Assembly (NCBI GenBank): GCA_016788565.1
Contig: JAEUSP010000064.1
Location: 289-64,288 of the forward strand
Direction of reading: 5' to 3'
Source of the DNA: Chlorobiota bacterium
GTDB taxonomy: Bacteria > Bacteroidota > Ignavibacteria > OLB7
DNA: 64,000 nucleotides
Shown here: positions 9,882 to 39,280 of the stretch, piece after piece
Position numbering within the stretch: the stretch's first letter is position 1
Layout: each line of letters opens with the position of its first letter
Notes under the pieces: model-generated
The model's database searches: none
Seen by the model: only the letters and a program-made list of their open reading frames with translations
Told to the model about the DNA's origin: nothing
Position numbers and translations under genes: made by a program

Positions 9882-9996
9882 GGTAGCTTATATAAAACTA
9901 TGGCCGTTAGTTAATTAACAGCCATAGTTTGTCTTAAAGTTTATTCAAAAATACTCATATCTAGTTTATATGCAACATACAAGATAGACATTCTGT

Positions 9997-20003: not shown

Positions 20004-21599
20004 TTACTTCCCCCCCGCCACTGGCTGGCGATTGGCCGGATCAAACGGATTGATTGGCATTGGTGTGGAAGCTGTGATGATCCAGATAGCTGAAACTTGC
20101 CGCTCCTTCGCATCATTCGCTAACACTTCTGCAGATAGGTGAGCTTCCCGCAACATCGTTCCGGTGATTGTTGCGCCGTTTCCGCCGCTGGCGGCAAGGG
20201 TGATGCTTCCCTGACCTGCCGGAATTGCAACGTCGCGCAGCCGATAAACGTGATGCCGCTTGCCAAGCTCGGTTGTGGCCAGCACCTCCAGATCAACCGT
20301 GATCGGTTTGCTGGGGTTCTCAACGGTCAAGGTCGGATGCGCCGTTCCCAGCCCTGCAAACCGTAGCCGTGCGGTTGCGCCACCTTCGCGGCAATCCACC
20401 CTGACGTATCCTTCCGGCCCACCAATCGCCATCCCGGCTCCATCCGTTCCCGAATTGAACTCCATTTCTGCCGAGGGCATCGCGCCGCTGTAGAAATATC
20501 CTTCAAACCGCTCCGGCATTTGCGCCGGAACATTCCCGAAGTTGAACCAGGGACTCACCTTCCCAAGCCCGGTGGCCGGGTTCCAATCAATCTGCTTGGT
20601 TCCTTCAACAAACAAGTGGCGACCATTGCCATCGCGAAGCTGAGTGATGCCAACATCGCGGCTTCCCCCTTTGCCCCAAATGAAGACTTTCAGCAGGAGT
20701 GTGGGAAGGCTAAGGCCCATCGAGGAAGGGGTGCGGCCGGTGGGGCCGGCAACCGAAAGTGGAAGCACTACCAGATGCCCTTCGCCAAGCGGGCTTCCGG
20801 CAACGCCATCATCGCCATCGGTTGGCCAGGGGGACATTTTTCCCGCCATCAGGAAGCTCCAGTTGGAGCCGCTGCGTTGGATGAAATTGCTTTGGCTAGT
20901 GTACCACCCCCGGTGGTTTGCGGAAGTATCGGCCCAGATTCGGTTGGGATCCACCACCCAGATTTTTTCGTTGCCCGGGCTTCCGGTAACGTCGTAGGCA
21001 ATCATCGTGTGGCCGCCTTCCTGCGGGTTCCACCCTTTGGTGACGCACACCAGATACGGGCCTTCGCGGCCAATAGTCTCGCGCGAGAGTGTCACCCCGT
21101 AGCTGGCATCTTGCGAGTGGCCCGAGTGTGCTTGCTCGATGTACTCTTGAATGCACGCCAGCGATAATTGGTGGCCGTGCATGATGTTGATTGCAGTGTT
21201 CAAATCGGGATCGCTGGGGCCTGGCCCCGAGCCTGAGCCAACGTATTTGATTGGCGGCGCGCAGTAGCCCAAGTAGCCGCCATACTTGTCCATCATCAGG
21301 CTAAGGCAGCTCATCCCGTAGCAGTTTCCTGCCCCGTTCCCTGTCCCGCCGGGGTCGGGAAGTGTGGTTTTGAACGCGGCTTCGTAGAATAGCTTGTCGA
21401 ACGTGGCCGACAACCAGGAACCGTTGGAATCGGGGGGGATGCCGTAGTAGCTGCGGGCGTAGATATGCCAGCCGAACATCGGCGTGGTGTAATTCTCGAA
21501 GCCCCAGCCGTACCTCTCGGCCGCATGCTGCGCGTTCCCCGCAATCGAAGCCACCAGCAGCAGTGCTGCCGAGCAGGATAGTATGCGTGGTATTATCAT
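20004..21599 (-). CDS. Secreted protein with a papain-like (C1/transglutaminase-like) Cys/His catalytic-core signature; putative cysteine peptidase
   Basis: Signal peptide (MIIPRILSCSAALLLVASIAGNAQ). 'GAGNCYGMSCLSLM' is a nucleophile-Cys-like motif and 'GGHTMIAYDV' a His-like motif. Confidence 0.4.
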   Translation of the reverse strand: MIIPRILSCSAALLLVASIAGNAQHAAERYGWGFENYTTPMFGWHIYARSYYGIPPDSNGSWLSATFDKLFYEAAFKTTLPDPGGTGNGAGNCYGMSCLSLMMDKYGGYLGYCAPPIKYVGSGSGPGPSDPDLNTAINIMHGHQLSLACIQEYIEQAHSGHSQDASYGVTLSRETIGREGPYLVCVTKGWNPQEGGHTMIAYDVTGSPGNEKIWVVDPNRIWADTSANHRGWYTSQSNFIQRSGSNWSFLMAGKMSPWPTDGDDGVAGSPLGEGHLVVLPLSVAGPTGRTPSSMGLSLPTLLLKVFIWGKGGSRDVGITQLRDGNGRHLFVEGTKQIDWNPATGLGKVSPWFNFGNVPAQMPERFEGYFYSGAMPSAEMEFNSGTDGAGMAIGGPEGYVRVDCREGGATARLRFAGLGTAHPTLTVENPSKPITVDLEVLATTELGKRHHVYRLRDVAIPAGQGSITLAASGGNGATITGTMLREAHLSAEVLANDAKERQVSAIWIITASTPMPINPFDPANRQPVAGGK

Positions 21600-21710
21600 C
21601 GGCTTGTTGTTGTTAGTTCATGGTTCGTTGCAAAGAAACGATTGCGGATATTCTTCTTCGTTTGGCATTCCACTGACTGGTGGATTGTGGTCATTAGTCA
21701 TTAGTCATTA

Positions 21711-22087
21711 GTCAGTGGTCAGTGGTCAGTGGCAAGAACACATTCGCCATTTCGGCGGCTGTGCCATTCCCGACTCCCTCACTCTTCCTCATTCGACATT
21801 CGACAGTCAGTGGTCAGTGGCAAGAGCACATTCGCCATTTGACATTCGGCGGCTGTGCCATTCCCGACTCCCTCACTCTTCCTCATTCGACATTCGACAG
21901 TCAGTGGTCAGTGGCAAGAGCACATTCGCCATTTGACATTCGGCGGCTGCGCTATTCCCGACTCCCTCACTCTTCCTCATTCGACATTCGACAGTCAGTG
22001 GTCAGTGGCAAGAGCACATTCGCCATTTGACATTCGGCGGCTGCGCCATTCCCGACTCCCTCACTCTTCCTCATTCGACATTCGACA
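21711..22087. repeat. Tandem array, 4 copies of a 94-bp unit (first copy 96 bp and slightly divergent)
   Basis: The unit 'gtcagtggtcagtggcaagagcacattcgccatttgacattcggcggctg(t/c)gc(c/t)attcccgactccctcactcttcctcattcgacattcgaca' repeats head-to-tail at 21806, 21900 and 21994. The period is not a multiple of 3, which explains the frame-hopping pseudo-ORFs 21715..21936, 21722..22030 and 21855..22286. Confidence 0.85.
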
Positions 22088-22101: not shown

Positions 22102-24570
22102 CTACGGGTGCGTCGCGCTTCGTGGTTGGGAGAGTTGCGAGAGCGAGCCGTCGTTGCGGAGGATTGCCACACGGTACCAGTAGGTCCGGTTCCGCGCCAC
22201 CGAGCGATCCGCAAACTCCCCCACCTTCACCACATTCTCCAGTTGGAAATAGCTCCCATCCTCGGTGTTGCTGCGGAAGACAATGAAGCCCCGCATCCGT
22301 GTGGCATCGTAGGCGGGCGACCACTGCACTTGCAACGCGCATGGCCCTTCGGTTGGGGTGATGGAGTTGATTGCCGGAGCATCCTCACGGTTCGATTTGA
22401 ACGTGAACGTGCTGATTGCCAGCGCGCTATCCCGCACCGATTCGTTCCCGTTTTTGTCAATGCCCAGCACCCGATACCAGTAGGTTGCTTTGGGGTTCAC
22501 CTTGTAATCCATGAACGTGCCAGCACTCATGTAGCTTTGGCTGCTGAGCGGAATGGAGTCGCAGACGGGAATTGCGGGCGGGGTGTAAGGGCTGGTGAGG
22601 ATTGCACCCACCAACGGTGGCGGAACAACCGTGCGCCCACCAACAAAGGTGTAGGTTCCGGTGCGGCTTTCGGAACGATAGACGTGGTAAGCCGCGATGT
22701 CCTGGACCGGCGGGCCAATCCACTCCACACGCACCGCGCTATCGCGGGCGTACAGGCCGCTGATGATTGCTGGCTCGGGCGGGGTTTTGTCGCGCAGGCG
22801 TTCGCACACCACAATCTCCTTCGTCAAATCCGGAACTGGCCACGCGCCGCTGATGTTCTGCGAGTGATCTTGCGCTTTCACCAAGTAGGCGTAGCAGAGT
22901 GGCGAGCCTTCGGGGACGGTGTAGTCGTCGAAGTAGGTGATGTTGCCGGTTGCGCGGTTGCGGGCATCGGTGTGGGAAATTTGCCCCACCAGCACAAACG
23001 GCCCGCCGCAATCGCTTGGCTTGTACGGGTTCTTATCCTTGTCGCCGTTTGGGTTTGGCTGGGTGTGCGTTGGTTTTCCGGCGGGCGTTTTGCCACGGGT
23101 GGTGTCGGGGCAGGGAATCCAATCGCCGTAATCGCACAGGGCGCGGTAAATCAGGTAGCCATCAATGTCGCAGTCATCGTTCAGTTCCCACTTCACCCTG
23201 ATGAACTTCTCCTCCCCCTGGGCTGTTGTTCCTTTCACGTTGTTCGGGCGGGTGGTGTCCTTCAGTGCCGCGCCCACCGCTGCCGAGCGTTTGCTGACAA
23301 GGTTTGCCGAGTCAATCGCTTCCACACGGAAGAACCAGCTTTTGTCGCCGCAGTCGCTCCGAAGCCCTGCAGAGCTATCCCCCTTCACCACAAACTGCGT
23401 GGAGTCGGTTGGGTGGTTCACCGTGCCAACCAGCACCGCCCCCACGTTCGGGTTTTCGGCATCTTCGTACCGATAGACTCGGTACGATTTTGTCTTCTCG
23501 CTGTGCCCCTGCTCATCGCGGATCACCTTTGGCCAGGTGATGCGGAAGCTGCTGGAAGTATCCACTGCCGTAACGATTATCCCGGTTGGTGTGGCCGGCG
23601 GGGTGCTATCCACCGGAACTCCATTGACCACCACCGAGAACGAACCTTCGTTCCCCAAGATGTCGCGATGCTTCACCTTGTAGTAGTAGGTCTTGCCGTT
23701 TTCTGGCCCCAAGAATGTTCCGGCCACGCCCGGGATGGAGATGGAAACCGGGTTCCCAGCCGAATCCCAGCGGGTGTAGTCGGTGAAGCCGTGTGCCGCG
23801 GGCGAGACTGATTGCTCCAGAATGTTGGTATCAATATCGCTGCTGATGGTTGCCTCGTTCACCCGACGATAAATGCCAGCCGCAAGATTGGAGCGATAGA
23901 CATTGAACCCGGCGAACCGTGGCGCAGGCTTGTTCCAAAGGATTTGCAGCTTGCGATCGCCAGCCACCACGCCACGCATGGATGGAGTTGGAATCGCCCC
24001 CGGCACACCGGCGGTGATCGTGATATCGCTGGCCCCGGTTGCCGGAAGCACCGTCCCACCGGCGTTCACCCGGCGGACTTGGTACTGGTAGATGGTTCCC
24101 GCAACCATGCTGTTATCCACCCATGCAACCCCCATCACCCGTGCAATCGCGGGGCGGGCGCGGGCAAGAAGCATCCCTTTGTTCCACCCTGCCGAGCCTT
24201 GCGCGTAGCCAGCAACCGCGCAGACGTTACCGAGCGGGGCTTTGGTGGCGGTGTCGGCAAAGGCGTTGGCAAGGTAGTTCCAATCAACCGAGCCTGAAGG
24301 GATGATGGTTTGGAACTGCGGGCAGTTGGTGATGGGCGCAATCGGCGTGGCATTCAGCGGCGCGGCGGGGTACGTTGCGTCGGCGGCCAGCTTCCGGTAG
24401 ATATTGTAGCGATAAACGGCCGTGGTGTCCGCCGGCCATGTCAGGAACACCTGCAGTGGGGCCGCAGTGGTGTAGCCTTCCAACGCCTGCGAGCGGGCCG
24501 GGCTGGGAAACAGAAGGAGGAGGAGAACAACGATTGTTCCCAGATTTATCCAAACCGCACTGTTTCCCAT
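22102..24570 (-). CDS. Secreted protein with multiple fibronectin type III-like domains
   Basis: Signal peptide from the internal Met (MGNSAVWINLGTIVVLLLLLFPSPARSQA). Repeated FN3-like 'L.V.W..P......GY.VYRS...G.Y' modules. Confidence 0.6.
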   Translation of the reverse strand: MGNSAVWINLGTIVVLLLLLFPSPARSQALEGYTTAAPLQVFLTWPADTTAVYRYNIYRKLAADATYPAAPLNATPIAPITNCPQFQTIIPSGSVDWNYLANAFADTATKAPLGNVCAVAGYAQGSAGWNKGMLLARARPAIARVMGVAWVDNSMVAGTIYQYQVRRVNAGGTVLPATGASDITITAGVPGAIPTPSMRGVVAGDRKLQILWNKPAPRFAGFNVYRSNLAAGIYRRVNEATISSDIDTNILEQSVSPAAHGFTDYTRWDSAGNPVSISIPGVAGTFLGPENGKTYYYKVKHRDILGNEGSFSVVVNGVPVDSTPPATPTGIIVTAVDTSSSFRITWPKVIRDEQGHSEKTKSYRVYRYEDAENPNVGAVLVGTVNHPTDSTQFVVKGDSSAGLRSDCGDKSWFFRVEAIDSANLVSKRSAAVGAALKDTTRPNNVKGTTAQGEEKFIRVKWELNDDCDIDGYLIYRALCDYGDWIPCPDTTRGKTPAGKPTHTQPNPNGDKDKNPYKPSDCGGPFVLVGQISHTDARNRATGNITYFDDYTVPEGSPLCYAYLVKAQDHSQNISGAWPVPDLTKEIVVCERLRDKTPPEPAIISGLYARDSAVRVEWIGPPVQDIAAYHVYRSESRTGTYTFVGGRTVVPPPLVGAILTSPYTPPAIPVCDSIPLSSQSYMSAGTFMDYKVNPKATYWYRVLGIDKNGNESVRDSALAISTFTFKSNREDAPAINSITPTEGPCALQVQWSPAYDATRMRGFIVFRSNTEDGSYFQLENVVKVGEFADRSVARNRTYWYRVAILRNDGSLSQLSQPRSATHP

Positions 24571-24627
24571 GCAGGTGTTTTTTATCGTTCTTTCAGTCTT
24601 GTTCATTGGCATCTCCTGTGTGTGAAA

Positions 24628-27600
24628 TCAGTGCATGTAGAATCCATCGGTTCGGTTGTAGCCGCAGGTGATATCTACGCTGCCGCAGAGCACCCAAAGC
24701 ACACACCCTTCCAGGCCAATCGTCCCTTCAAACGCCGGCGGGATGGCCCCGGTGAACTGCAAGTTCCCCCAAGCCGCCGCGCTGACAAGCCCACCAAGAA
24801 TTTCCCCCCAAATCCGCACGCCAACGTTCCCAACAAAGTACGGGAAGGCAAGCCCGGGGACTGATGTCCCGCCGATGAACGGGGAATCGTGGACGAACGC
24901 CCCTATGCCGACGTACAACTGGAATCCACCGGAAGCAAGGAAATAGAAACTGACGGAAGCCTCAACATTCAGGAATGCGTAGAACCCGGTAAGCCGCCCT
25001 GGCAAGCCACCTTTGTTCAGGCCAAACCGCCCGTTGATTCCATCCATCACCCACACCCGTTCTTTGGGAACGTTGTGGCCAAAGAAAATTCCGGTTTGCG
25101 CGCCAAGCCCCCCCAAGTATCCCCAAATCCTGACGGCCACCCGCCCCTGCACCGACTGGTAGTCGGTCCCCAAATGCCAATCGAACTCACCCTCACCTTC
25201 CACTCCCGCAATCACCGCCCCCAAATTGACCGTTCCCCGGAAGTAGCCTTCGGCAAAAATTTCTTCGCCACGCTCAACGGTGAACGATGCCAGCCCGGTG
25301 ACCTCAAGATCAACCGCGCCAACGTTCACGAACATTGCGCCGTTGGCCTCCATCACAAACCGGGTGGGTGAGTAGCTCATAATCATGCTGACCATGTTCC
25401 CACCACGCGCGGCAATGCTGAAGCCAATCCCCAGGCTGCTGGAGATTTCCCCGCCAAGCGCAATTTTTTCCAGCGATTCCCCCACAATGCAGCCGCACCC
25501 CCAGATATTCCCCATTGCCGACATCTGCGCCACCGGGCCAAGCGCAAAAGTGTGCGCGCTTTCCTCCATCACCCGGAAGCAAATCCCTTCGGCGGCGATG
25601 TCAATGGTGGAGTACATCCCGCCGGTGATGTTGAACAGGCTGACCTCCCCCGCTCCGAAAAATCCGTCCTGGCGATCCACGTGGTAGCGGATGCTGTCGT
25701 ACTCCAAGTTGGCGATTCCATCACCCCAGTTCCGTTGCCATTCCAGCTGGCTGGGGGGCGCGCCCATGTAGGTGGTGTCCAGCACCCGCACGTAGCGTCC
25801 GTTGAACGGGTTGTTCAGCTTGGCCGACTTGTAGTCAACGATGGAAAGCCGTTTGGAGCCGAAGAAGTTGATGGCCACCGAGCCATACGCCAAAATGTGG
25901 CCGCTGTCGCTGGGGATGTACGGCGAGAGTTTTACCAGTTCGGGCGAGAATCCAAACCGGTCGAACTTCTGGCCGACGCTGTTGTAGTCGAACGCCAACC
26001 GCCCCATGTTTCCGCTGGCTTTCATCTCACCCCAAACCAAGTAGAACGGTTTTGCGAAGTGGCGCGGCTCGTTGAACCCAGCCGCCGTCAGGTAGATCAC
26101 CCCCAGCTTCACGCAAAGGATTCCCGCCGATTTTGTTGGGTCCTTCGGGACCAAACCAACGCCCCAGTAGGCCATGGTGTCCGGCTGCGAAAGATCTACC
26201 TGGCCACCAGCACACTCGGCGGTGGAGGTGAACATCATCTGCTTGAACGCAATCTCGGCATCAACCGGCATCGGCAGCTTCACCGACCCCATCAGCTCGC
26301 TGTACCACATCGCACTTTCCACAAACTGAAGCCGAACCAGCTTGTTGGTCTGGTCTTTCTTTTTGGGGTCGAACCCAAAGGTGGTTTTGAACGGAGCTTC
26401 GCCGGCGTAGGCGGGTCCGGTTTCCCACACTGGCCCCATCTCCACTTCCCCCATCCTATCTTTCTGCAGGCGGAGGAGTACCTCGGTATGCACACCGGTT
26501 CGGGCAACGTTCATCCAAATTTTCACAACGGTTTCGGCGGGGAACTTCAGTCCGTCGGTTGGGTTTGGGCGGTCGCGCGTGGCAATCATCAGCGGCACGT
26601 TGGCGATGCTGGGGATTGTCACCCCTTGCAGTCGCTGGGTTTCCAGCTGGGCGGTTGCCGGGGCAAACAGTGGCGTGGTAAAGGTGGTGTCGGCCAGTGG
26701 GTAGAACGGCGGCATCCACCGCGCACCCAAGTAAAAATGGGCGGGGACATCGGTGGATGATCCGGTAATCAAGTAGTAGCGTTTTGGGCTGCTGGGCTTG
26801 TTGCTGTACTCACCCCAGGCCAGATTATCCTTCACCGTCAAGTCCGCAAACTGGTCCTGGTCGGCTTGGATTTTTAGCGTGATGTTGTGCACATCTACAC
26901 GGTTCATGCTGCTTTCCGCAGTGCTGATTGCCACGCGCGGAAGCCGCATACTGACGTTGTTGAACTCACCATTCTCGATAGCACTTTTTGCCACGCGAAG
27001 GTAGCCGCCACCGGTTAGGTTAATCTGGTAGCCGAATGGGTCCAGCGCGTGATAGACAAACGCTCCCCCCATGTTCATCCGCGCCGCAAACCCGCTTCCG
27101 GTAATCAGCCCGTTGACGAACGTGTATTTCGCCTGCACATATCCCCGATTGCTGATAACTGAGTCGGAAGGGGAATCGGGTGTGGTTCCGGCGTTCAGCA
27201 CCACCCCTTTCCAGGATGCTGCCAACGGCGGCATTGGCCCGGCGGGGGATTGCGCTGCGGAGAAATCCACGGTGTAGCCTTTCCCATAAACAAGCAACCC
27301 GGTTTCGCCGATATGCCACCGCCCGTAGTCGGCACTGGCAATTTCTTGGTAGAACTCACAGGTGGAGGTGATGGTGGTGGTTGGGAACGGGACCCGCGCA
27401 CGGGTGCAGGTGTCGTTGCTGATGATGCTGGTTGGCAGCAACACCGCCCCTTTCACGCTGGCCGATGCTGGGCGAATAATCAGCGAATCAATGGCAAGCG
27501 TGAACGCGCTGTCCAGCGTGATTTCCGCTGGCGGGGTTGGGATTGGTGAGGAGGATGGATAGATGGCGATGCCGTCGGTCAGCACCTCGGTCCGCTGCGT

Positions 27601-29496
27601 TGGCAAGTCCCATTTCACGTCGCGGAAGGCAACGCGGATTCCGTCGGGAGTGTTCTTTTTGAAAATGTCAATCAGCGCGTTCCGGTTGATGACGGTCTCC
27701 TTCAGCGAGGTGATGGAGCTTGCCGGAAGGTCCAGCGAAATCATGTCGCCAATTTTTGCGGTTGGCTCAACATACACCGCCTCGGCCACGGCCAGCTCGG
27801 TGGCGGAATCGCTGACCGCCCCCACCACATCGAAGTTTTTGCGGATCATCCCAAGCTCCCCAAACCACCAGGGTTTCGGTTTCTTCCCGCCGTTGCAGTC
27901 GAACTTCACTCTGCCGATTCCGCTGGGGCGGCTGGGGTCGGCAGATTTGGAGCTTGCGTCCCAATCTTCCACCACAATCGTGAAGCCGCCAGCAATCAGC
28001 GTGTCGGGAAGTTTTTTGGCGATAATCAGGTCGGGGAATCGCTCGAAAATGCTGGTGGCGCGCTTGTCGGCGCAGGCCGCGCCGTCGTTGCGGATGGTTT
28101 TGCCGTTGAACTCCAGAGTAAACCGCCACGCATAATTCACCCCTTCTTTCGGGGTGAAGCCATCGCTTCCGTTGGCGAACGCAAGCTCGAAATAGGTGCG
28201 GTCGGCCCCTTTCCCTTTTGTGGCAATAATTCCTGCGGCCACGTTCCCTTTCAGCTTCCGGCTGAACACCGGCTGCGATTTGCTCCCAACCAAATCGTAC
28301 GGAAGATTGGCGCGGCGGTCGGAAACAAACACCTCCACTTCCGCCCCCGTCACCGCATCAAGATTGATGCCTGGTTCGGCATATCCGGCAAACTGCATTG
28401 CCCGTTTGCCAACGTCGGTTTGCTTTGCTGCGGTTGGCGTTAGCGCAACACAGCCGAAGGTTTTGCCAAGCTGAATTTCATCGGTCTTGACCAGCGGCAG
28501 CGTATCTGTTTTTTTGGCTCCGATGGTGTCGGGGTTGATGGGAAGCTCCACAAGATCAATCGGCTTGTCGGTGATCTTGATGGGGTTGGTGACCGAGTCG
28601 TTCAGCATTGGGGTGATGTTGTTCCACTGGAAGGAGCAGACATCGCTGAAGCCGTTGTTGCGGAAGGCAAGGTTGCCGGAAGGATCAACCGCCTGGACTT
28701 GCCAGGCATAGCTTGCGCCGGGGGTAAGTGGCGGGTCGGCCGGGCCGTACAGAAGCGTTGGGCCGTTTGCTGTTTGCTCAAAAAATGCGGGGCTGGTGGC
28801 GGCCTTCATCGCCTGCTGCGGCGATTGCCCTTTCACGATTGGGACCATCTTGAAACGGTACTGCGTTGCCGCCGGCGCGCCCGGCGGAATGGTCCATTGG
28901 AACTGCACAAGTTGCGGCTTGGTGGCTTTCACAACTTGGCCGCAGGTTGGCTGCAACGGCTCGGGTTCGTCGGCGGTGCGGACCACAAACGTGGCGCAGC
29001 CGCTTGGCTCCTGGGGCGAAAGCGGGGCCAGCGTCTTGAACTCCAACGCCCGAACGCAAACCCGATAAACCCCTTCCGGCAGCAGCTTGGTTCGGCCAAT
29101 CAAGTCCTTATCGGCCCCTTTGAAGCGAACCGCGTTGCCGTCAAAAATTTTGAAGTCGTTCAGGTTCAGCGTCCGCACCGCCCCTGGCTCGATTCGGAGC
29201 GCGCTAATCGGGTATTCATCTTTCGTCTCGATTCGGGTACTGCCGTCGGTGTTTTCGGCAAAGCCAGCAAGCCGGAAATCGTAGCCCCGAGAAAGGTCTT
29301 GGTTCTGGACGGTGATCAGAATCCGGTTTGGGTTCGCAAGCCAGACGGAAAGATCGGGGGAGTATGGCGGAAGCACCGCAATCGTCACGTTCAGCGGTGA
29401 TTGTGCGCGAAGCCCCGCGCCCCCCGCGCCGGCAAGCATCAACAACAGCAGCGGCAGTGTTCGGCTAAGCCATCGTAGTGTGTAGCGTCGGTTCAT
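24628..29496 (-). CDS. Giant secreted hypothetical protein (1622 aa)
   Basis: Clear signal peptide (LLLLMLAGAGGAGLRAQS). It is co-directional and tightly spaced with its neighbours (16 bp to the FN3 gene). I recognised no catalytic motif. Confidence 0.6.
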   Translation of the reverse strand: MNRRYTLRWLSRTLPLLLLMLAGAGGAGLRAQSPLNVTIAVLPPYSPDLSVWLANPNRILITVQNQDLSRGYDFRLAGFAENTDGSTRIETKDEYPISALRIEPGAVRTLNLNDFKIFDGNAVRFKGADKDLIGRTKLLPEGVYRVCVRALEFKTLAPLSPQEPSGCATFVVRTADEPEPLQPTCGQVVKATKPQLVQFQWTIPPGAPAATQYRFKMVPIVKGQSPQQAMKAATSPAFFEQTANGPTLLYGPADPPLTPGASYAWQVQAVDPSGNLAFRNNGFSDVCSFQWNNITPMLNDSVTNPIKITDKPIDLVELPINPDTIGAKKTDTLPLVKTDEIQLGKTFGCVALTPTAAKQTDVGKRAMQFAGYAEPGINLDAVTGAEVEVFVSDRRANLPYDLVGSKSQPVFSRKLKGNVAAGIIATKGKGADRTYFELAFANGSDGFTPKEGVNYAWRFTLEFNGKTIRNDGAACADKRATSIFERFPDLIIAKKLPDTLIAGGFTIVVEDWDASSKSADPSRPSGIGRVKFDCNGGKKPKPWWFGELGMIRKNFDVVGAVSDSATELAVAEAVYVEPTAKIGDMISLDLPASSITSLKETVINRNALIDIFKKNTPDGIRVAFRDVKWDLPTQRTEVLTDGIAIYPSSSPIPTPPAEITLDSAFTLAIDSLIIRPASASVKGAVLLPTSIISNDTCTRARVPFPTTTITSTCEFYQEIASADYGRWHIGETGLLVYGKGYTVDFSAAQSPAGPMPPLAASWKGVVLNAGTTPDSPSDSVISNRGYVQAKYTFVNGLITGSGFAARMNMGGAFVYHALDPFGYQINLTGGGYLRVAKSAIENGEFNNVSMRLPRVAISTAESSMNRVDVHNITLKIQADQDQFADLTVKDNLAWGEYSNKPSSPKRYYLITGSSTDVPAHFYLGARWMPPFYPLADTTFTTPLFAPATAQLETQRLQGVTIPSIANVPLMIATRDRPNPTDGLKFPAETVVKIWMNVARTGVHTEVLLRLQKDRMGEVEMGPVWETGPAYAGEAPFKTTFGFDPKKKDQTNKLVRLQFVESAMWYSELMGSVKLPMPVDAEIAFKQMMFTSTAECAGGQVDLSQPDTMAYWGVGLVPKDPTKSAGILCVKLGVIYLTAAGFNEPRHFAKPFYLVWGEMKASGNMGRLAFDYNSVGQKFDRFGFSPELVKLSPYIPSDSGHILAYGSVAINFFGSKRLSIVDYKSAKLNNPFNGRYVRVLDTTYMGAPPSQLEWQRNWGDGIANLEYDSIRYHVDRQDGFFGAGEVSLFNITGGMYSTIDIAAEGICFRVMEESAHTFALGPVAQMSAMGNIWGCGCIVGESLEKIALGGEISSSLGIGFSIAARGGNMVSMIMSYSPTRFVMEANGAMFVNVGAVDLEVTGLASFTVERGEEIFAEGYFRGTVNLGAVIAGVEGEGEFDWHLGTDYQSVQGRVAVRIWGYLGGLGAQTGIFFGHNVPKERVWVMDGINGRFGLNKGGLPGRLTGFYAFLNVEASVSFYFLASGGFQLYVGIGAFVHDSPFIGGTSVPGLAFPYFVGNVGVRIWGEILGGLVSAAAWGNLQFTGAIPPAFEGTIGLEGCVLWVLCGSVDITCGYNRTDGFYMH

Positions 29497-29529
29497 AGCG
29501 GCTGTCCATATCTGTGGTTCAAGCGTTTC

Positions 29530-29645
29530 GTGTCGGTTGTTATACTCGGAACATAGTGGCTTGCGAAAAACTCAATCAAGTGCGCTATGGATTCCCGCTT
29601 TCGCGGGAATGACAACGCAGGTGTTTTCGCAAACCACGTTCATCA
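29530..29645. repeat. Inverted copy of the 18040-18160 element, including the palindrome 'ATTCCCgctttcgcGGGAAT'
   Basis: The reverse complement of 29585-29640 reads 'aacgtggtttgcgaaaacacctgcgttgtcattcccgcgaaagcgggaatcca'. The flanking arm 'gagtttttcgcaagccactatgttccgagtat' resembles 18124-18160. Confidence 0.7.
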
Positions 29646-29649
29646 GAGT

Positions 29650-31389
29650 TTATCGGCCTTCTTCTTCGGGGCTATCTGGTTTCCAGGAGAAGGTTCGGCT
29701 GTAGGCCAGGGTGGCCGTTAGCTCGTTGAAATCGCTGCTGGCCGAGATTGTTCCGGCCCCCTGGGTGCGGTACAGCGTGAAGGTGAATTGATCTTCCGTT
29801 GTTGGGCGGAATCCGGCATTTGCCGTCAGGTTTATCACCGTGCCATCGAACGCCTCCATTTGTCCGGTGGCCAAGTTCAGCGCGGTTGTTTCCGTTGCGG
29901 TGTAGCCGGCCGAGGCCCCCACCGAGAGCGTGTTATCGAACAACCCGAGGGAGCCGTTCAGGGTTCCGCCCGTTGTTCCAATATCCAGCGTTCCGGTTTC
30001 GGTGGTCCCGCGCAGCACCGAGAATCCAATGCTGACCGCGCTCTCCACAAAAGTGAGGTTGTAGATCAGCGAAATGTTGTTCCCGCGTGAGTTGGTGAAA
30101 GCGTTGGTGAAGGCGTTCAGATCGCTGAACTCCTGGTAGTTGCCGATGACGGTGATGAAGTGGTTCAACGCCTCCGATTGCAGCAGCAACCGTGGCGCAA
30201 GCGTGGCCGATTGTGAAACGTTCCGCACACGGATGGAGTCGTTGATTGCCACCCGCCCCGCCGATTGGTCGGTGGAGTAGTTGATGTAGTTGGCATCAAT
30301 CCCGAAGGCATCGGTTGGGTACCAGCCAACGTTTGCCGAGCCGATAAGTCGGTTGGTTTCGGCAAAGCGGGTGTCCAGCAAGTTGTCGTGCTGGATTCCC
30401 ACCGATCCCCCAAGCCGCAAGCGGTTATCGAACAAGTCCAACGCAGGGGCAATCGTCCACCGCTCGAAATCGCTTGCCAGATACCACGTTCCCAACGAAG
30501 TGAAGTTCGGCTCCACCCGCTCGTATCCCGCACGGATTTTGAACGTGGGGATTGCAAAACTTAGCCCAGCCTTGCTGGCCAAATTCAGCGCGGTGGAGTT
30601 GTGAATCGGCTGGACGCTGGAGAAGAAATCAAGGTCACTGCTGTCAAGGTCGGTCAGTGGGGCGCGGGTGTCGCGGGTGTGAAGGCTTCCGGCAACGTCG
30701 GCATCCAACGTCAGTTCGGGGGTGATGTTGGTTTTCAGCGTCAGCCCCAGCACACTGTTTTCGGCGGGATAGAGTTCGTTCTGCGTTGGTGCTTTTTTCA
30801 GCGACGCGCTGTCGTCGTTGGCATGGAACCAGATAACATCGAAGTAGCTTTCCTGGCTGCCGAACCCAACTTTCAGCGCGTAGCCGTTCCGCTGGTAGGC
30901 GGGGATGTTGTAGAACTGCGTGGTGTCTTCCTCAACCGCCCGTTGCAGCCGCCCAATCATCCCAGCAAACCGGAACTTCCCCGGGTTGAACTCCATCCCG
31001 GCTCCCAAGAACGTCACTCCATCCAACGTGTAGGGGGACATGGTCATGGCGCGGTAGCCGAAGTATCCGGTCAGCGATTTGTAGCGTGGCGAAATTCCGA
31101 ACTGATTGAACGGCTGGCGGAAGTCCCGCTCCTGCTCGCTGAAGATGAAGTCAATCGGAAGCTGAAGGCTGTAGATTGTTGGGTTGAAGGTCCCGTTCAC
31201 AGTCCAGCTGAACGGTTCGCGGCGTTCGGGAATTCCGCTTGCCGAGTACCCCACCACCGAAGCACCCACCGACCCGCTGAAGGAGAACGGAGGTGCCTCG
31301 GTGATTTTTTCAACATCCGTTTGGGCAACGGCTTGCTGTGCTGCAATCAGCAGCAGCAGAATCGGGATATGTGTCCGCAGCCTTGCCAT
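29650..31389 (-). CDS. Predicted outer-membrane beta-barrel protein
   Basis: Signal peptide (ILLLLIAAQQAVAQ). Alternating amphipathic beta-strand pattern. C-terminal aromatic residue ('...TLAYSRTFSW'). It sits at the head of an operon-like block of secreted proteins. Confidence 0.5.
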   Translation of the reverse strand: MARLRTHIPILLLLIAAQQAVAQTDVEKITEAPPFSFSGSVGASVVGYSASGIPERREPFSWTVNGTFNPTIYSLQLPIDFIFSEQERDFRQPFNQFGISPRYKSLTGYFGYRAMTMSPYTLDGVTFLGAGMEFNPGKFRFAGMIGRLQRAVEEDTTQFYNIPAYQRNGYALKVGFGSQESYFDVIWFHANDDSASLKKAPTQNELYPAENSVLGLTLKTNITPELTLDADVAGSLHTRDTRAPLTDLDSSDLDFFSSVQPIHNSTALNLASKAGLSFAIPTFKIRAGYERVEPNFTSLGTWYLASDFERWTIAPALDLFDNRLRLGGSVGIQHDNLLDTRFAETNRLIGSANVGWYPTDAFGIDANYINYSTDQSAGRVAINDSIRVRNVSQSATLAPRLLLQSEALNHFITVIGNYQEFSDLNAFTNAFTNSRGNNISLIYNLTFVESAVSIGFSVLRGTTETGTLDIGTTGGTLNGSLGLFDNTLSVGASAGYTATETTALNLATGQMEAFDGTVINLTANAGFRPTTEDQFTFTLYRTQGAGTISASSDFNELTATLAYSRTFSWKPDSPEEEGR

Positions 31390-31446
31390 TGGTGTTCCCT
31401 CTGGTTTGATCGAATGATCCTTGTGTTGTGTGAGTAGGCTACGGCA

Positions 31447-33945
31447 TCACCGCGCCACCACAATGCTGTTGCTCACCATTCCTTGCTCCGTTTGCATCCG
31501 CAGAAAGTAGAGGCCTGCCGGAAGCCCGGTAAGATCGTAGTTGATCTGGGTTGAACCAGCCTCCATCGCGCCGTTGTACACGGTGGCAACGGTGGTTCCC
31601 AGGGCATCAACCAGCCGCAGTTGAACCAGCCCGGCGCGCCGCACTGTGGCGGTGAATTGCGTTTGGCCGTTTGCGGGGTTTGGCTGTGCGGCAACCCACA
31701 TTCCTGATGTTTCTTCGGTGGCATCCACGCTGGCCGATGCGGTGGTGAGGCTCCAGGTTTCCGACCACGGCCCAACGCCTGCATTGCTTTCGGCACGGAC
31801 GCGCCAGTGCAGGGTTTTCAAGTTCGGCAACACCCCTACGTTCAGCGTTGTGCCCTGGATATTTCTGATCCCTTTCACCAGGGTGCTGAAGCCGGGGTCG
31901 GTGGCAATCTGAAGCAGATAGTACTGGGTTCCGGGAACCTCGCTCCACTGGAAGTCGAGCACCGTCCAAAGGTTTGGCGATTTGTTGGCTGGGGCAATCA
32001 GCGTTGGCGCGGCAAGCGTTGGCGGTTGTGTGTTGAAGCTGCGGGTTTGGGACCAATCGCTAACCCCAACGTTGTTCCGCGACTGCACGCGCCAGTGGTA
32101 GGTGGTTGCCGTGTTCAGGTCGGGGATGGAGATGGAGGTTGTGGTCACGCCCGTGACCTCGGTCAGCACCGTGTTGAAATCGGACGTTGTGGAAAGCTGC
32201 ACGCGATAGCTTCCGGCAGCCGGGGCCGCGCTCCATTGCAACACTGGGCTGATGGAAATGCCGTTTTCTTTATCAAGCGGATAGATCAAACTTGGTGCCG
32301 AGGGGGCGATTGGCTGAACAGAAACGCCGCTGAATGCCCCGGGTGAGTTTGCCGCAGGGCGGTGCCCGCCGGAGAAATCAAGCGGGGTCCCGTTGCTGAT
32401 TGAGCCGGAAGGAACTGGCGGATTTTTTGGGGCATCCACCCAGGAAAAATCCGAGGCGATGAAGGTCCGTGCGCTGATCAGATTTCCCCCCGGTTTTGGC
32501 GCGTAGTTGTTGTTGGCGGGGTCAATCAATTCCGGCGCAAACTCGTTGATGCTGTTGTCCTGCTTCAGCTGGATTTCGTTGCAGTCAATGTTCTGCGGGT
32601 CGCAGCCTGGCTCGCGCCCGTCGGCGGAAACCATCATCAAAATTCCATGCTGTCCGCTTCCGCCATTCCAGATCACGTTCCCTTTTATCCGCACGTTTTG
32701 GTCGGCGCGGGAAGGGCTGGGGATGTTGGTTCCTTCGGTGGTGGTCATCGGGGCATCCACCGCAAAGTGGCTTACCAGCGTGCGGGTTGGCAGCGGATTG
32801 AAGAAGACGTTGTTGTACAGATAGACGTTCCGGTTGGGGATCGGGGCCGCTTGCCCCAGAACGGAATCGGCCCCCCAACCACCCAAAGCAAGATAGGTTG
32901 CGCACAGGCTGTCGTTTGTGCAGTGGCGCGTCCCATGCACGGCTTGGAACAGGGGCGCGGCTTCGGTCTCATCGGTGGCAACGCGGTACAGGGTGTTCCA
33001 GGCAATCAGCACGTTGTAGCCACCGGCAACGTTCAACGGAGTGCCGGTAACGTCGTGCAGAAGATTGTTCACCACGCGGGCATCGTAGATTTCGTAGTGG
33101 AGCCAGGGTGCGGTCATTAAGCTGAACAGCGACCCACCCCCCAGCGAGATGCCGCGCCGGCAATCTCGGACAGTATTTGCTTCGGCCTTCAGGTACGCAG
33201 TGCCAGCAAACGTCATCACCCCCCAGTTCGTGGCTCCTGCAATATCATTCTTCAGCAGCTCGACATGCTGTGAACCAACCACAACCACTCCGTTCTCCGA
33301 TTGCCCTTGCAACTGGCACTGCTCCACGTGGAGATTGGTGCTGTTCAGGATTCCAATGCCGGCATCTACGTCGCTGTTTTCGGGATACTGGGCTGGGTCA
33401 GGAGCAATCAGGCGGAGGTTGCGAAGCAGGATGTTCTGGCCAGAAAACACCGCCAAGAGTGCCTCGGAAGGAGGCTTCTGGCCGGGGATGGAACGGATGG
33501 AAAAATCCATTAAATAAACGTTGCTGGGATTCCGCAGCGTTAGCCCGCCAACCAGCGTTGCCGAGCCAGCCCCATCAACAGCGCGGATGATGATGGGATG
33601 CTGGCGGGTGGTCGCAACGGTTTGGGTCAAAATTGGGGTGCAGTCGGGAAGGTCGCAGGTGTGGTCGCCGTTCATCAGGTTAATCCGGAAGCCGAAGTTG
33701 GCAAGCAGTGTGTTGTTCATCAGGCTCCATGCCGTGCTTACACTGCGCAGCGGAGTTTGGCGGGTCAAACCATTGTTCGTATCGCTTCCGGTTGGCGAAA
33801 CATAGACATCCACAAACGGCCCTGGCTCCCCAAGATCCCAAGCGCGTGGGTCCAGCGTTTGGGCAACTGTGGGGATTGTGCCAAGCAGCAGAAACAGGGC
33901 AATTGCCCGCAACATCTGTGGGAACGACCGTCCGTTTTTCATCAT
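31447..33945 (-). CDS. T9SS-sorted secreted protein with a right-handed parallel beta-helix domain, FN3-like domains and a Por_Secre_tail C-terminal domain
   Basis: The C-terminal ~80 aa read '...VQLRLVDALGTTVATVYNGAMEAGSTQINYDLTGLPAGLYFLRMQTEQGMVSNSIVVAR'. The beta-helix has 'NN..HD' repeats. The start was set at the internal Met (MMKNGRSFPQMLRAIALFLLLGTIPTVAQ) to avoid a 150-bp overlap with the upstream gene. Confidence 0.7.
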   Translation of the reverse strand: MMKNGRSFPQMLRAIALFLLLGTIPTVAQTLDPRAWDLGEPGPFVDVYVSPTGSDTNNGLTRQTPLRSVSTAWSLMNNTLLANFGFRINLMNGDHTCDLPDCTPILTQTVATTRQHPIIIRAVDGAGSATLVGGLTLRNPSNVYLMDFSIRSIPGQKPPSEALLAVFSGQNILLRNLRLIAPDPAQYPENSDVDAGIGILNSTNLHVEQCQLQGQSENGVVVVGSQHVELLKNDIAGATNWGVMTFAGTAYLKAEANTVRDCRRGISLGGGSLFSLMTAPWLHYEIYDARVVNNLLHDVTGTPLNVAGGYNVLIAWNTLYRVATDETEAAPLFQAVHGTRHCTNDSLCATYLALGGWGADSVLGQAAPIPNRNVYLYNNVFFNPLPTRTLVSHFAVDAPMTTTEGTNIPSPSRADQNVRIKGNVIWNGGSGQHGILMMVSADGREPGCDPQNIDCNEIQLKQDNSINEFAPELIDPANNNYAPKPGGNLISARTFIASDFSWVDAPKNPPVPSGSISNGTPLDFSGGHRPAANSPGAFSGVSVQPIAPSAPSLIYPLDKENGISISPVLQWSAAPAAGSYRVQLSTTSDFNTVLTEVTGVTTTSISIPDLNTATTYHWRVQSRNNVGVSDWSQTRSFNTQPPTLAAPTLIAPANKSPNLWTVLDFQWSEVPGTQYYLLQIATDPGFSTLVKGIRNIQGTTLNVGVLPNLKTLHWRVRAESNAGVGPWSETWSLTTASASVDATEETSGMWVAAQPNPANGQTQFTATVRRAGLVQLRLVDALGTTVATVYNGAMEAGSTQINYDLTGLPAGLYFLRMQTEQGMVSNSIVVAR

Positions 33946-34027
33946 GGTAGTTGGGTAGCTAATCATCATTTCATTGTTGGTTGTTGGTGAGTTGGGAAGC
34001 CCAATTGCTAAACGGCAAACCTTCCCT

Positions 34028-35896
34028 TCACCGGATAACCAGCAGCGGCAGCGTTGTGGTTCCCATGTTGCTGAACATGGTGCAAAAAAAATGTCCAGAA
34101 GGAAGAGCGGGGAGCAGAAGCTGAAGGCTTGTGGCCCCGGGTTGGATGGCGTTGGCACAAAGCTGCTTGCCGGAAGCATCGCTCACCACAATGCGTTGGC
34201 CTGCCGGTTGCGGTTCTGCGAACGCAATCACCACCACTCCGCTGGCGGCGTTGTAGCTGGCGCGAAATTGCCGTGTGGCAGCGGGGCCGCTCTGCTGAAC
34301 TTCTTCCTGAACTCCACTGGTTGCGGTGTTCCCAAACGCCCCGGGTGGTTGGTTCCCGTTTCGGAGCGCGCCGGTGTAATCGCGGGCCACGCTGTTGCTG
34401 AAATTTCCCGGCGGAGCTTCTGGGCGCGCGGGGCGGTCGCCGCCGGGGAAATCGGGGATGGGATAGGCGGTGATGCTCCGCAAAGGGCTTGCCGCCGGAA
34501 GCCGAAAATCCAGTTTGGAAGGATCAAGAAAATCTGGCTGCACGGTGTTGATGCTGTTCTGGGCCAGCAGCTGCGCTTGGTTGCACGTTGGGTTGCTGTT
34601 TTGGCATCCGGATTCATCCCCCAGCCCCAGCGAGTGTTCCGGCGGGCCGTTCCAGATCACGTTTCCACGGATGTTCAATCTGTCGTCGGCCAGCGCTGGG
34701 TTTGGCGCGTTCGATTCGGCAGGGTTCCCCGCAAACGGGCCGAAGATGGTGAAGTGCTGATATTGGCTTTGCACACCGGGCGGATTGCAGAAAATGTTGT
34801 TGAACAAATAGACGTTCCGGTTTGGGATGCGGATGTAGTTGTTTCCGTCGTCCACCACGGTGGTTCCCCAGCCGCCGGCGGCCAGGTAATCGGCGCAGTT
34901 TCCGCGCCCGTTGTCGCCCGGCTGGCCATCGCAACTTCTTCCGCCAAACACCGCCTCGAACAGGTGGCTTCGCACGCCGATTCGGTAGCAGGTGTTGTGG
35001 GCCATCAGAATGTTGTATCCCCCCTGAACTCCCAATGCCGCCCCTTCGGTATCGTGGATGATGTTGTTGATGACTTTCAGATCGTAGGCTTCGTAGTGAA
35101 TCCAGGGTGAGGTCATAAACTGGAATCCGGTCCCTTGCCCTGCGGTGAAGCCGCCGGTTCCTCCGTCGTAAATTTCGTTCGACTCCACGCGGAAATATGC
35201 CGAGCCGCCTTTCAGATAGATGCACCAATCGTTGGCGCGGTGGATTTTGGAATCAATGATGTGGCCATGCTGAACTCCAACAAAATCCACAGCATTATCG
35301 GTGGCCCCGCTGATGTCGCACCCTTCCAGATAGACGTGCTGTGATTGATTGATTTTCAGCCCTTCCTGCGGCCCTTGGTAATCGCGGATGTTGCCCGTGC
35401 CAATCACCGTCACGCCACGCAGCAGCAGATGGTTGCAGGCCTCGAAATGGAGTACATCGCCACCGCCGCCGGTGATGATGAGGTTCATCAGATAGAGGTA
35501 GCGGCAATCATACAAGTTCATATTTGGAAGGGTGACGGGGGGATAGCCCGGCGCGGTGGAAATCACCACAGGATGCTGCGCGCTGCCGTGGCGCGACTCC
35601 CAGTAGGTGGGCAACGTTTCTTCTGGATAATCCCCCGGCAGCAGCATAATTGCAAAGCCACGAGTAAGGGGAATGCTGCTGGGGATTCGGTTCCATGCTT
35701 CGCGCACCGTGCGGAGCGGCGCAACTTGGGTGGCGTTCGGGCTGGCATCGTTGCCGTTGGCGGGGCTCACCCACAGCGTATCCAATTCCGGGGTGCCGAT
35801 TTGGTAGCTGCGTGGCTCCATCTGCTGCGCGCTGGCGGCGGCCAGAGCAAGCAGCAGAAGAAGCATGGTGCAGCAGAAAATTCGGCGTAGAATCAT
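34028..35896 (-). CDS. T9SS-sorted secreted beta-helix protein, a paralog of 31447..33945
   Basis: Shared motifs with the neighbouring gene ('NNIIHDTEGAALGVQGGYNILMAHNTCYRIG' vs 'NNLLHDVTGTPLNVAGGYNVLIAWNTLYRV'). C-terminal domain ends '...SGHFFCTMFSNMGTTTLPLLVIR'. Signal peptide from the internal Met (MILRRIFCCTMLLLLLALAAASAQ). Confidence 0.7.
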   Translation of the reverse strand: MILRRIFCCTMLLLLLALAAASAQQMEPRSYQIGTPELDTLWVSPANGNDASPNATQVAPLRTVREAWNRIPSSIPLTRGFAIMLLPGDYPEETLPTYWESRHGSAQHPVVISTAPGYPPVTLPNMNLYDCRYLYLMNLIITGGGGDVLHFEACNHLLLRGVTVIGTGNIRDYQGPQEGLKINQSQHVYLEGCDISGATDNAVDFVGVQHGHIIDSKIHRANDWCIYLKGGSAYFRVESNEIYDGGTGGFTAGQGTGFQFMTSPWIHYEAYDLKVINNIIHDTEGAALGVQGGYNILMAHNTCYRIGVRSHLFEAVFGGRSCDGQPGDNGRGNCADYLAAGGWGTTVVDDGNNYIRIPNRNVYLFNNIFCNPPGVQSQYQHFTIFGPFAGNPAESNAPNPALADDRLNIRGNVIWNGPPEHSLGLGDESGCQNSNPTCNQAQLLAQNSINTVQPDFLDPSKLDFRLPAASPLRSITAYPIPDFPGGDRPARPEAPPGNFSNSVARDYTGALRNGNQPPGAFGNTATSGVQEEVQQSGPAATRQFRASYNAASGVVVIAFAEPQPAGQRIVVSDASGKQLCANAIQPGATSLQLLLPALPSGHFFCTMFSNMGTTTLPLLVIR

Positions 35897-35999: not shown

Positions 36000-36295
36000 G
36001 CCAAATTTCCGCACGGAAGAGTGAAGAGTGAGGTGTGAAGAGTGAAATAAAGCCAAAGCGGGAAACCCACCAATGACTAACGACTAATGACTAATGACCA
36101 CCGCGAACGCAGCCCTCCGCTCATGCTGAGCCCCGTCGAAGTATGAGCGGAGCCACCGAACCGAGCCGATTTCACTACCTGCCCTCTCCGAAGCAAAGAG
36201 TGAAGAGTGAGGTGTGAAGAGTGAAATAAAGCCAAAGCGGGAAACCCCCCAATGACTAATGACTAACGACCAATGACCGTCCCCCAACTGTGGCA
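36000..36295. repeat. Composite intergenic element in a divergent promoter region: two direct copies of [module B + 'aaataaagccaaagcgggaaaccc' + module A heptamer run] flanking module C copy 4
   Basis: 'gaagagtgaagagtgaggtgtgaagagtgaaataaagccaaagcgggaaaccc..aatgactaa(c/t)gactaa...' occurs at 36018-36098 and at 36196-36290. Module C lies at 36105-36172. Confidence 0.8.
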
Positions 36296-38401: not shown

Positions 38402-38482
38402 GGAGACGGATTATTTGGAGATTTCGGAATTTGCATCAGCAACAGCAATGCCATGGTGGTGATTGTGGAGTTGGTGTAAGCA

Positions 38483-38522
38483 CAAAAAAAAGCCAGCACA
38501 CTTTTGTCTGCTGGCTTTTGTT
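38483..38522. terminator. Bidirectional rho-independent terminator
   Basis: 'aaaaaaaagccagca' and 'tgctggcttttgtt' flank a 'cacttttgtc' loop. An A-run lies upstream and a T-run downstream, between convergent genes. Confidence 0.6.
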
Positions 38523-38545
38523 AACGTAGGATTTTGCATTCTACG

Positions 38546-39280
38546 TCAATCAATCTTTGCTTGTTCTATTACTCGGTCATCAATAATCGCATTGTTGGTT
38601 TTTAAATCAGCATCATTCATTCCTGTTGCCAGTATTCTCAATTTTATTTTGACTTGCTTATCTGTGAATTTGCTATTGCTTCTGGCGCGGATCAGAATGT
38701 TCTTTTGTTCGTTAAACTTCACCGTTGAGTCTTGATTCTTGAAGTCAAAATGAATCTTCGCTAATGTGCTTAGAGTTGCAAATGTTGGAGGGAAAAGGGC
38801 GTAAGTCAAAGGAAAGTCTTCCTGATTTTCAGAATCAGGAACTAAGCTAACAACAACGGATAGCATACCTCCATTAGGTGAGTTTGGGGATGTTAGATTC
38901 TTTGCATAGTACGTCCCTGACACATCCAAATTCATTGATAAAGTGTCATCAATACTGAGTTGAAATGGCTGGCTATAGCAATAAAAAATTTCTGGATTTT
39001 TTTTATGATGAATAAGCTGAGGTTCAATTGGTATGGACTGCTGAACACCAGAAGAAGTAGTAATCACAACAGAGCCTACTTCTGTTGTGAAATTGAATTT
39101 TACCTCTTTTTTATCAAAGAAGTGATGGTATGCTCCTGCTACTGTCACTCCATTTGTAAATTTTGTAGAAGTAGTCTGACCGAAGCAAAGGGTCACTCCT
39201 AAAAATATAGAAGCAACGCTCACGATGGAGCAAAGAGTTGTTTTCATTGATCGTTCAGTTGTGTTTTGAAGATTCATCAC
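38546..39280 (-). CDS. Hypothetical secreted protein (AT-rich island; paralog of 39277..39990)
   Basis: Signal peptide. Local GC is roughly 38%. It shares 'VQ(Q/R)SI..(E/Q)P', 'F(Y/S)(C/W)YS(Q/E)PF(Q/E)L', 'SG(T/S)YY' and 'KI(K/R)LR(I/L)' blocks with the adjacent gene. Confidence 0.6.
   Translation of the reverse strand: MMNLQNTTERSMKTTLCSIVSVASIFLGVTLCFGQTTSTKFTNGVTVAGAYHHFFDKKEVKFNFTTEVGSVVITTSSGVQQSIPIEPQLIHHKKNPEIFYCYSQPFQLSIDDTLSMNLDVSGTYYAKNLTSPNSPNGGMLSVVVSLVPDSENQEDFPLTYALFPPTFATLSTLAKIHFDFKNQDSTVKFNEQKNILIRARSNSKFTDKQVKIKLRILATGMNDADLKTNNAIIDDRVIEQAKID

Follow-up and report, generated by a model that had tools for sequence, protein, structure and literature searches.

A candidate two-partner-like export or display device pairing a TANFOR-headed giant protein with a new family of outer-membrane barrels in a Chlorobiota bacterium

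The window analysed here, 64,000 nucleotides of a Chlorobiota bacterium (contig JAEUSP010000064.1 of assembly GCA_016788565.1), carries a block of five minus-strand genes that includes a giant protein of 1622 residues with an N-terminal TANFOR domain. In transcription order the block encodes two beta-helix proteins, an outer-membrane beta-barrel of 579 residues, the giant, and an 836-aa protein with fibronectin type III (Fn3) repeats, hereafter Fn3p; a sixth co-directional gene, for a secreted 531-aa protein, follows downstream (Table 1). A first-pass annotation of the sequence had described the five genes as spaced by 16-150 bp. In the open reading frame (ORF) listing of the window all five are confirmed intact at 22102-35896, and the spacing holds at 15-153 bp (gaps of 61, 57, 153 and 15 bp in transcription order). 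The possibility that the 1622-aa frame is interrupted was also removed: 14 public contigs carry a copy at 99% identity and colinear orthologues of full length were found at 44-88% identity, so the protein is not an assembly artefact. The lower boundary of the block had been drawn too tightly, as the 531-aa gene outside it belongs to the conserved unit described below. Sec-type signal peptides were recognized by eye in the 579-, 1622-, 836- and 531-aa products and in beta-helix protein 1. The closest relatives of the window sequence are metagenome-assembled genomes (MAGs) of Kapabacteria and of 'Chlorobi bacterium OLB7'. Scans for sigma-70 promoters and intrinsic terminators gave no more sites than shuffled sequence, the Bacteroidetes TAnnTTTG motif was not found in the spacers in a by-eye search, and no tRNA or Rfam matches were obtained in the window.

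Conservation of the block was assessed from orthologous loci. The order 579-like, 1622-like, 836-like and 531-like was maintained at about 45-50% identity in four of them (L004, L005, L008 and L014), and on this gene order the conserved unit consists of four genes, those for the barrel, the giant, Fn3p and the 531-aa protein. The block joins two unrelated things, namely this four-gene envelope module and a paralogous pair of beta-helix genes. At least 590 barrel-family loci are present in GTDB species-representative genomes, and 80 were fetched. In 77 of the 80 the barrel gene is directly followed by a same-strand ORF with a TANFOR head; two of the other three are at contig ends and one (L075) is a genuine orphan. 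The linkage was equally close in the reverse direction, with the barrel gene immediately upstream in 41 of 42 metagenome loci retrieved by the head alone (a scan that used a 5-sequence alignment and samples mainly Bacteroidota-type heads); the single locus lacking it begins at a contig edge. The TANFOR gene has an Fn3p-family gene as its direct downstream neighbour in 67 of 86 loci; among the metagenome loci this is so wherever the contig extends far enough. The arrangement over 82 loci is (sensor kinase, LuxR-type regulator) barrel-TANFOR-Fn3p, in some cases with extra Fn3 or TIG proteins after it, and the barrel-TANFOR-Fn3p triad is spread over Bacteroidota, Ignavibacteria and Kapabacteria. 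Pairwise identities of barrel and head co-vary (r = 0.91, 84 loci), the mean divergence being equal at 38%, and two triads with distinct barrels occur in single MAGs (L007 with L019; L036 with L057). Co-variation of this kind together with paired triads would be the pattern of cognate pairs, and plain co-inheritance would predict it likewise.

Upstream of the triad in L016, L020 and about 30 other loci (about a third of those in Bacteroidota) stand genes for a LuxR-type response regulator and a Reg_prop/Y_Y_Y/HisKA_3 sensor kinase, which suggests induction of the triad by a periplasmic signal. No kinase-regulator pair adjoins the module in the window.

The 579-aa protein was modelled with AlphaFold2 from a 107-sequence alignment, with a predicted local distance difference test (pLDDT) of 93.4 and a predicted template modelling score (pTM) of 0.84, bearing out its first-pass description as an outer-membrane beta-barrel. 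In it, 24-26 long antiparallel strands are seen, and POTRA, plug or other periplasmic domains are absent. Neither Pfam, NCBIfam nor PHROGs gave a match to the protein, POTRA, ShlB and Bac_surface_Ag included (Pfam, NCBIfam), and a profile search of PDB sequences was empty; the barrel is therefore taken as a new family. More than 247 proteins match the family, all of them 'hypothetical' and none with a Pfam domain, and conservation is highest at residues 78-125 (SEQERxFRQPFNQFGxSP...). By analogy, the size class of the barrel fits that of barrels which hold or pass a protein partner. Identity as a type IX secretion system (T9SS) adaptor of the PorP/SprF type was considered and rejected, there being no family match and no type-B tails on the partners.

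The first-pass annotation had recognized no domain in the giant. Residues 35-152 match TANFOR (TIGR02542, E 1.3e-9; 38 bits, under the NCBI cutoff of 67), and a hidden Markov model that we built for the head matches the protein with an E-value of 3.5e-118. Residues ~30-310 are the only part in common with some 27 other proteins of 1300-2700 aa from Bacteroidota and relatives, to which the head is 30-46% identical over about 280 aa; one of these is named 'TANFOR domain-containing'. It is likewise the only part held in common with 64 of 64 TANFOR ORFs of the loci. The whole protein is 88% identical to one from 'Chlorobi bacterium OLB7'. All 65 complete TANFOR ORFs have the first ~300-350 residues in common, after which unrelated body types follow. 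One type of about 20 combines a conserved body with variable last 200-300 residues, as expected of polymorphic toxins; the type found in the window is conserved to the final residue in its orthologues. The idea that all TANFOR bodies are divergent homologues was dropped, as profile-profile comparison between the type-A body and the bodies of the other types showed nothing credible (best probability 36%).

The body of the giant has a distribution of its own. An exhaustive search with residues 423-1622 returned 201 cluster representatives at E<1e-3, nearly all aligned through the last residue. Many of these homologues are without a TANFOR head and have FG-GAP/VCBS, TPR, TIG or other N-termini. 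In L087, L088, L131 and L132 the body gene is each time followed by an 836-like and a 531-like gene, and no 579-type barrel is nearby. Since body, 836-like and 531-like genes thus occur elsewhere without the barrel, the locus in the window represents a fusion of a barrel-head cassette with a separate three-gene module. Put in terms of the four genes, and as far as gene neighbourhoods tell, the module is a fusion of a sub-module A (barrel, TANFOR head and Fn3p) with a sub-module B (the body as cargo and its 531-like partner).

Pfam and PDB sequence searches gave no match to the body. In the searches with the 579-, 531- and 1622-aa proteins, sub-threshold matches to the PHROG 'tail fiber J' (E 4e-4), DUF6923 and DUF6564 were discarded. 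The AlphaFold2 model of residues 423-1622 (76-sequence alignment; pLDDT 87, pTM 0.61) is almost purely beta. The last ~300 residues form about 16 long, hairpin-connected strands with alternating hydrophobic patterns; they contain 18% glycine and 13% charged residues (11-13% across orthologues), and the C-termini of the orthologues read GFYLY or GFYMY. Judged from the model, the C-terminal domain is probably porin-like and membrane-embedded, giving the giant an autotransporter-like layout.

The 836-aa protein gave a weak fn3 match (Pfam, E 5e-8) and contains six 'YxYxVxAxD' Fn3-type motifs, corresponding to about six Fn3-like domains, in agreement with the Fn3 repeats first noted by eye. Where compared, it is 40-43% identical to the partners of the head-less body genes. 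On these neighbourhoods Fn3p appears to be the universal partner of both the TANFOR genes and the body family. The 531-like gene was found only in loci with the 1622-type body; it is the body, and not the TANFOR head, that it accompanies. No match to the 531-aa protein was obtained in Pfam, NCBIfam, PHROGs or the PDB. An alignment of seven diverse members revealed the invariant residues Cys93 (GNC[FY]G), His197 (GGH) and Asp217-Pro-Asn219, and a shorter form of about 320-360 aa retains only the N-terminal part that holds them. By analogy with the passenger-maturing proteases of type V systems, the 531-aa protein would most simply be read as a candidate enzyme, secreted and with the body as its substrate, of the cysteine peptidase or transglutaminase-like kind.

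TANFOR polymorphic toxins of Bacteroidetes are a published class defined by the N-terminal TANFOR domain (Jana, Salomon & Bosis 2020, PMC7073777). The domain-based neighbourhood analysis in that study found Fn3, PKD, SprB and T9SS-tail domains enriched near TANFOR genes, and export by the T9SS was speculated upon with the route left open. TANFOR has been counted among 'trafficking domains' (bioRxiv 10.1101/2021.10.19.465003), and a TANFOR protein of 3078 aa was detected in the vesicle proteome of Tannerella (PMC10682907). A whole-word literature search found no later paper that settles the export route. The locus in the window resembles the published class in the Sec signal and N-terminal TANFOR head on a giant protein, in the Fn3 and T9SS-tail genes nearby and in a host lineage of the same group as Bacteroidota. 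It differs in that the tightest partner is the barrel, which the domain-based analysis (PMC7073777) could not see.

We propose that the 579-aa barrel is the cognate translocator or anchor of the TANFOR head. In the reading we favour, and hold with evenly divided confidence, the triad serves for export or anchoring in a two-partner-like manner, on the basis of a barrel of a new kind; that barrel and head touch, and which way transport runs, we infer. Once exported by Sec, the TANFOR head would reach the periplasm first and engage its cognate barrel as the TPS domain of two-partner secretion (TPS) engages TpsB, and the barrel would then export the variable remainder or anchor it at the cell surface, with Fn3p as a periplasmic or surface accessory. 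The cargo in the window would be a surface protein with a porin-like anchor of its own, which the 531-aa enzyme would mature by processing or cross-linking the body. More tentatively, and somewhat short of what we would bet on, barrel and Fn3p may form a dedicated outer-membrane secretion or display pathway of Bacteroidota, Ignavibacteria and Kapabacteria, with substrates set by the TANFOR head: a functional analogue of TPS and contact-dependent inhibition (CDI) systems assembled from unrelated parts.

The likeness to TPS and CDI systems (TpsB/TpsA, CdiB/CdiA) lies in the barrel gene directly upstream of the gene for a giant exoprotein, in a conserved N-terminal module of about 300 aa on otherwise variable proteins with polymorphic C-terminal toxins in the family, and in cognate paralogous pairs within genomes. 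In contrast to TpsB and CdiB, the barrel is not an Omp85 protein, lacks POTRA domains and has 24-26 strands instead of 16; the giant has TANFOR as its head, with no match to the TPS (haemagglutination activity) domain in Pfam or NCBIfam, and Fn3p is a third obligate partner. Chaperone-usher (FimD/PapC), LptD-LptE and MtrB-MtrA systems are more remote, with identities of at most 13% and no match to the usher, LptD or MtrB families; the barrel moreover lacks the plug and the N- and C-terminal domains of an usher (PF00577), and the pairing of such an usher with a PapD-like chaperone is absent. The giant also seems to differ from a classical autotransporter (type Va): its C-terminal domain, as modelled, has about 16 strands instead of 12, no match to the Autotransporter family (Pfam PF03797) and no visible linker helix, the beta domain contains conserved cysteines, and extra partner genes always accompany the giant and may be required.

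Several points weigh against this proposal. Simple co-inheritance would likewise produce synteny and co-divergence. The orphan 579-type barrel (L075:9689-11599) has no TANFOR neighbour, and in another exception (L131:3285-11056) the body is joined to a divergent TANFOR-like head that has no barrel within 10 kb. Foldseek comparison of the body with the PDB yielded only low-scoring barrel matches (TM-scores 0.09-0.15), none of them informative for the passenger part. If the giant does have a C-terminal barrel of its own, the need for a second barrel would be left unexplained. A catalytic role of the 531-aa protein, finally, would be read from its invariant residues only.

In principle, the 579-aa barrel could instead be a substrate-specific uptake channel, with the giant capturing or processing the substrate by a Sus-like logic. 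We consider this unlikely: only the ~300-aa head is conserved with the barrel and the bodies are unrelated, the nuclease or other toxin ends on some family members (PMC7073777) are unlike nutrient capture, and 24-26 strands without a plug are far above the 16-18 strands of known specific channels.

That the 1622-aa protein would be a polymorphic toxin of the TANFOR class leaving the cell via the T9SS, with the barrel and Fn3 genes as bystanders, is quite unlikely. Such a toxin would account for the TANFOR head and signal peptide, for the adjoining T9SS cargo genes, as in the published enrichment (PMC7073777), and for the variable C-terminal ends in other TANFOR types. However, no T9SS tail was detected in the last 120 aa of the 1622-, 836- and 531-aa proteins, even at E 10, and the giant lacks a T9SS sorting domain. 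No toxin family matched the 1622-aa protein, which thus has no variable C-terminal toxin domain, and conservation of its C-terminus to the last residue over about 200 representatives means that the end is not polymorphic. Directly downstream there is no small immunity gene, the neighbours being the Fn3 protein and the 531-aa protein, both conserved with the body. Moreover, the near-obligate two-way linkage of barrel and head is unlike that of bystander genes. When ten other TANFOR proteins were scanned with Pfam over their last 500 aa, neither a toxin nor a T9SS tail came up, so that the published toxin ends were not reproduced in this sample. On sequence grounds the giant is a member of the TANFOR family by its head, and it lacks the toxin and immunity gene of the polymorphic-toxin class.

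According to the first-pass annotation the five genes probably make up one or two operons serving a cell-surface apparatus, perhaps for adhesion or polysaccharide degradation; in such a single apparatus the beta-helix enzymes would be the catalytic parts. The co-directional and close arrangement of the genes agrees with this, and the beta-helix fold is frequent among lyases and hydrolases of polysaccharides; the Reg_prop/Y_Y_Y kinase that precedes the triad in about 30 other loci is, in addition, typical of Bacteroidota glycan loci. Both proteins indeed match Pfam Beta_helix (protein 1, E 2e-11; protein 2, E 2e-8) and are paralogous, with 31% identity over about 640 aa. Their proposed role as T9SS cargo stood for protein 2, which also has an fn3 match (E 4e-7) and ends in a type A sorting domain (Por_Secre_tail E 6e-8; TIGR04183 E 6e-7). 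For protein 1 the Por_Secre_tail match at the C-terminus is sub-threshold (E 0.18, 12.6 bits), and none of the four module proteins has such a tail. Homologues of the beta-helix genes are confined to the same genus (L001-L003 and L007) and were absent from the orthologous loci L004, L005, L008 and L014, so the five-gene apparatus is not co-conserved. The genes missing from every orthologous locus outside the genus are thus the two for the putative enzymes, whereas the other four stay together, and searches of the conserved module in Pfam and NCBIfam gave no carbohydrate-active domain. Of the apparatus, what remains is a set of exported envelope proteins, some of them encoded in a conserved surface module: the 579-, 1622- and 836-aa genes are kept in related genomes, the beta-helix genes are not, and the conserved module shows no link to polysaccharide degradation. 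Overall, a single apparatus of five genes is very unlikely, and by their distribution the beta-helix genes appear as lineage-specific neighbours outside the conserved module. A gene for a 657-aa protein (36428-38401, plus strand), divergent from the block, is kept beside the beta-helix genes in the same genus; it has a weak match to a sigma-70 region-4-like helix-turn-helix (E ~1e-3) and may encode a regulator.

Least probable of all is that the glycine-rich C-terminal beta domain is a membrane-inserting killing domain with the 531- or 836-aa protein as accessory or protection factor: the domain occupies the toxin position of polymorphic toxins and has strong membrane-barrel-like features, but it is invariable between lineages, is present in many proteins without the trafficking head and has no small immunity-like gene beside it, and its aromatic C-terminal ending fits assembly into the outer membrane of the producer itself.

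Two spacers of the module contain repeats. The palindromic repeat reported in the first pass between the barrel and giant genes was recovered with the core ATTCCCGCGAAAGCGGGAAT; a further copy of the core is at 18088-18107 (0 matches expected by chance), within a second full copy of the element (18057-18160, plus strand) that is about 80% identical over ~100 bp. The RNA hairpin of the palindrome has a predicted energy of -48.6 kcal/mol (z = -6.2). In a near-identical strain (L001) a third copy (L001:3308-3327), absent from the window, lies upstream of the first beta-helix gene, and such presence/absence polymorphism makes the palindrome typical of a mobile element of the kind listed in Table 1. 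In orthologous loci the barrel-giant spacer is 0-99 bp. From its position, the palindrome might modulate the relative expression of the barrel and giant genes. The 94-bp array in the spacer of the 836- and 531-aa genes was not found in L001, where the spacer is 321 bp, so its copy number varies between strains.

Table 1. Positions of the genes, protein regions and repeats of the block and its surroundings in the window. REP/MITE, repetitive extragenic palindrome/miniature inverted-repeat transposable element; TRF, Tandem Repeats Finder.
Feature	Position	Strand	Details
Beta-helix protein 1	34028-35896	minus	622 aa from upstream ATG; gene callers start 10 codons later (612 aa); signal peptide
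Beta-helix protein 2	31447-33966	minus	839 aa; full ORF to 34179, 910 aa
Outer-membrane beta-barrel	29650-31389	minus	579 aa; signal peptide
Nested palindromic REP/MITE-like element	29540-29640	minus	~100 bp; in 153-bp spacer between barrel and giant genes
Giant TANFOR-head protein	24628-29496	minus	1622 aa
Signal peptide of giant	29404-29496	minus	aa 1-31
TANFOR head of giant	28567-29403	minus	aa ~32-310; TANFOR domain and second conserved beta-rich domain
All-beta body (passenger) of giant	25534-28029	minus	aa ~490-1321
C-terminal porin-like beta-meander domain of giant	24631-25533	minus	aa ~1322-1622; candidate membrane barrel
Multi-Fn3 protein (Fn3p)	22102-24612	minus	836 aa; secreted
94-bp tandem repeat	21718-22087		4.0 copies; in 502-bp spacer of 836- and 531-aa genes; TRF score 670, 96% matches
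Secreted protein, sixth co-directional gene	20004-21599	minus	531 aa; 502 bp downstream of 836-aa gene

Other repetitive features were observed in the window. An ORF of 2070 codons (65-6277, plus strand) consists of dozens of 51-nt units (17 aa, 'NTxGxxNTAVG'); it gave no NCBIfam match, and its product resembles a repetitive protein of the surface or adhesin type. Intergenic blocks at 36008-36099, 36187-36278, 40960-41232, 21677-21744 and 6896-6965 contain heptamer arrays (GTCATTA / GTCAGTG) and a conserved unit of about 60 nt (GAAGAGTGAAATAAAGCCAAAGCGGGAAACCC...), and such blocks occur repeatedly, ahead of several genes and on both strands. A second palindromic intergenic family of about 65 nt (…CTCCGCTCAT…ATGAGCGGAG…) is found at 6380-6444, 6621-6685, 41069-41133 and ~36120-36185. 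Patches of low G+C content at 8001-10000 (0.45) and 38001-40000 (0.41), compared with ~0.58 elsewhere, may be acquired DNA; the latter covers two small ORFs (38546-39990) with no Pfam match.

The near-obligate pairing of barrel and TANFOR head provides a concrete candidate for the export route of TANFOR proteins, one that can be addressed in cultured Pedobacter, Spirosoma, Dyadobacter and Runella; strains with the triad include Pedobacter agri PB92 (L050), Runella limosa DSM 17973 (L081) and Spirosoma oryzae DSM 28354 (L067). As no model exists for the barrel family, an analysis of neighbourhoods by domain could not have seen the pairing. To our knowledge, the only recognized exporters of large proteins in the phylum are the T9SS and, in some members, the type VI secretion system. 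If the proposal is true, the triad would add a further secretion or display route in the phylum and would extend the two-partner logic beyond Omp85 transporters. The locus described here shows head and barrel to be a portable cassette, presumably for delivery, that has captured a widespread surface module consisting of the body, an Fn3 rod and a putative Cys-His-Asp enzyme.

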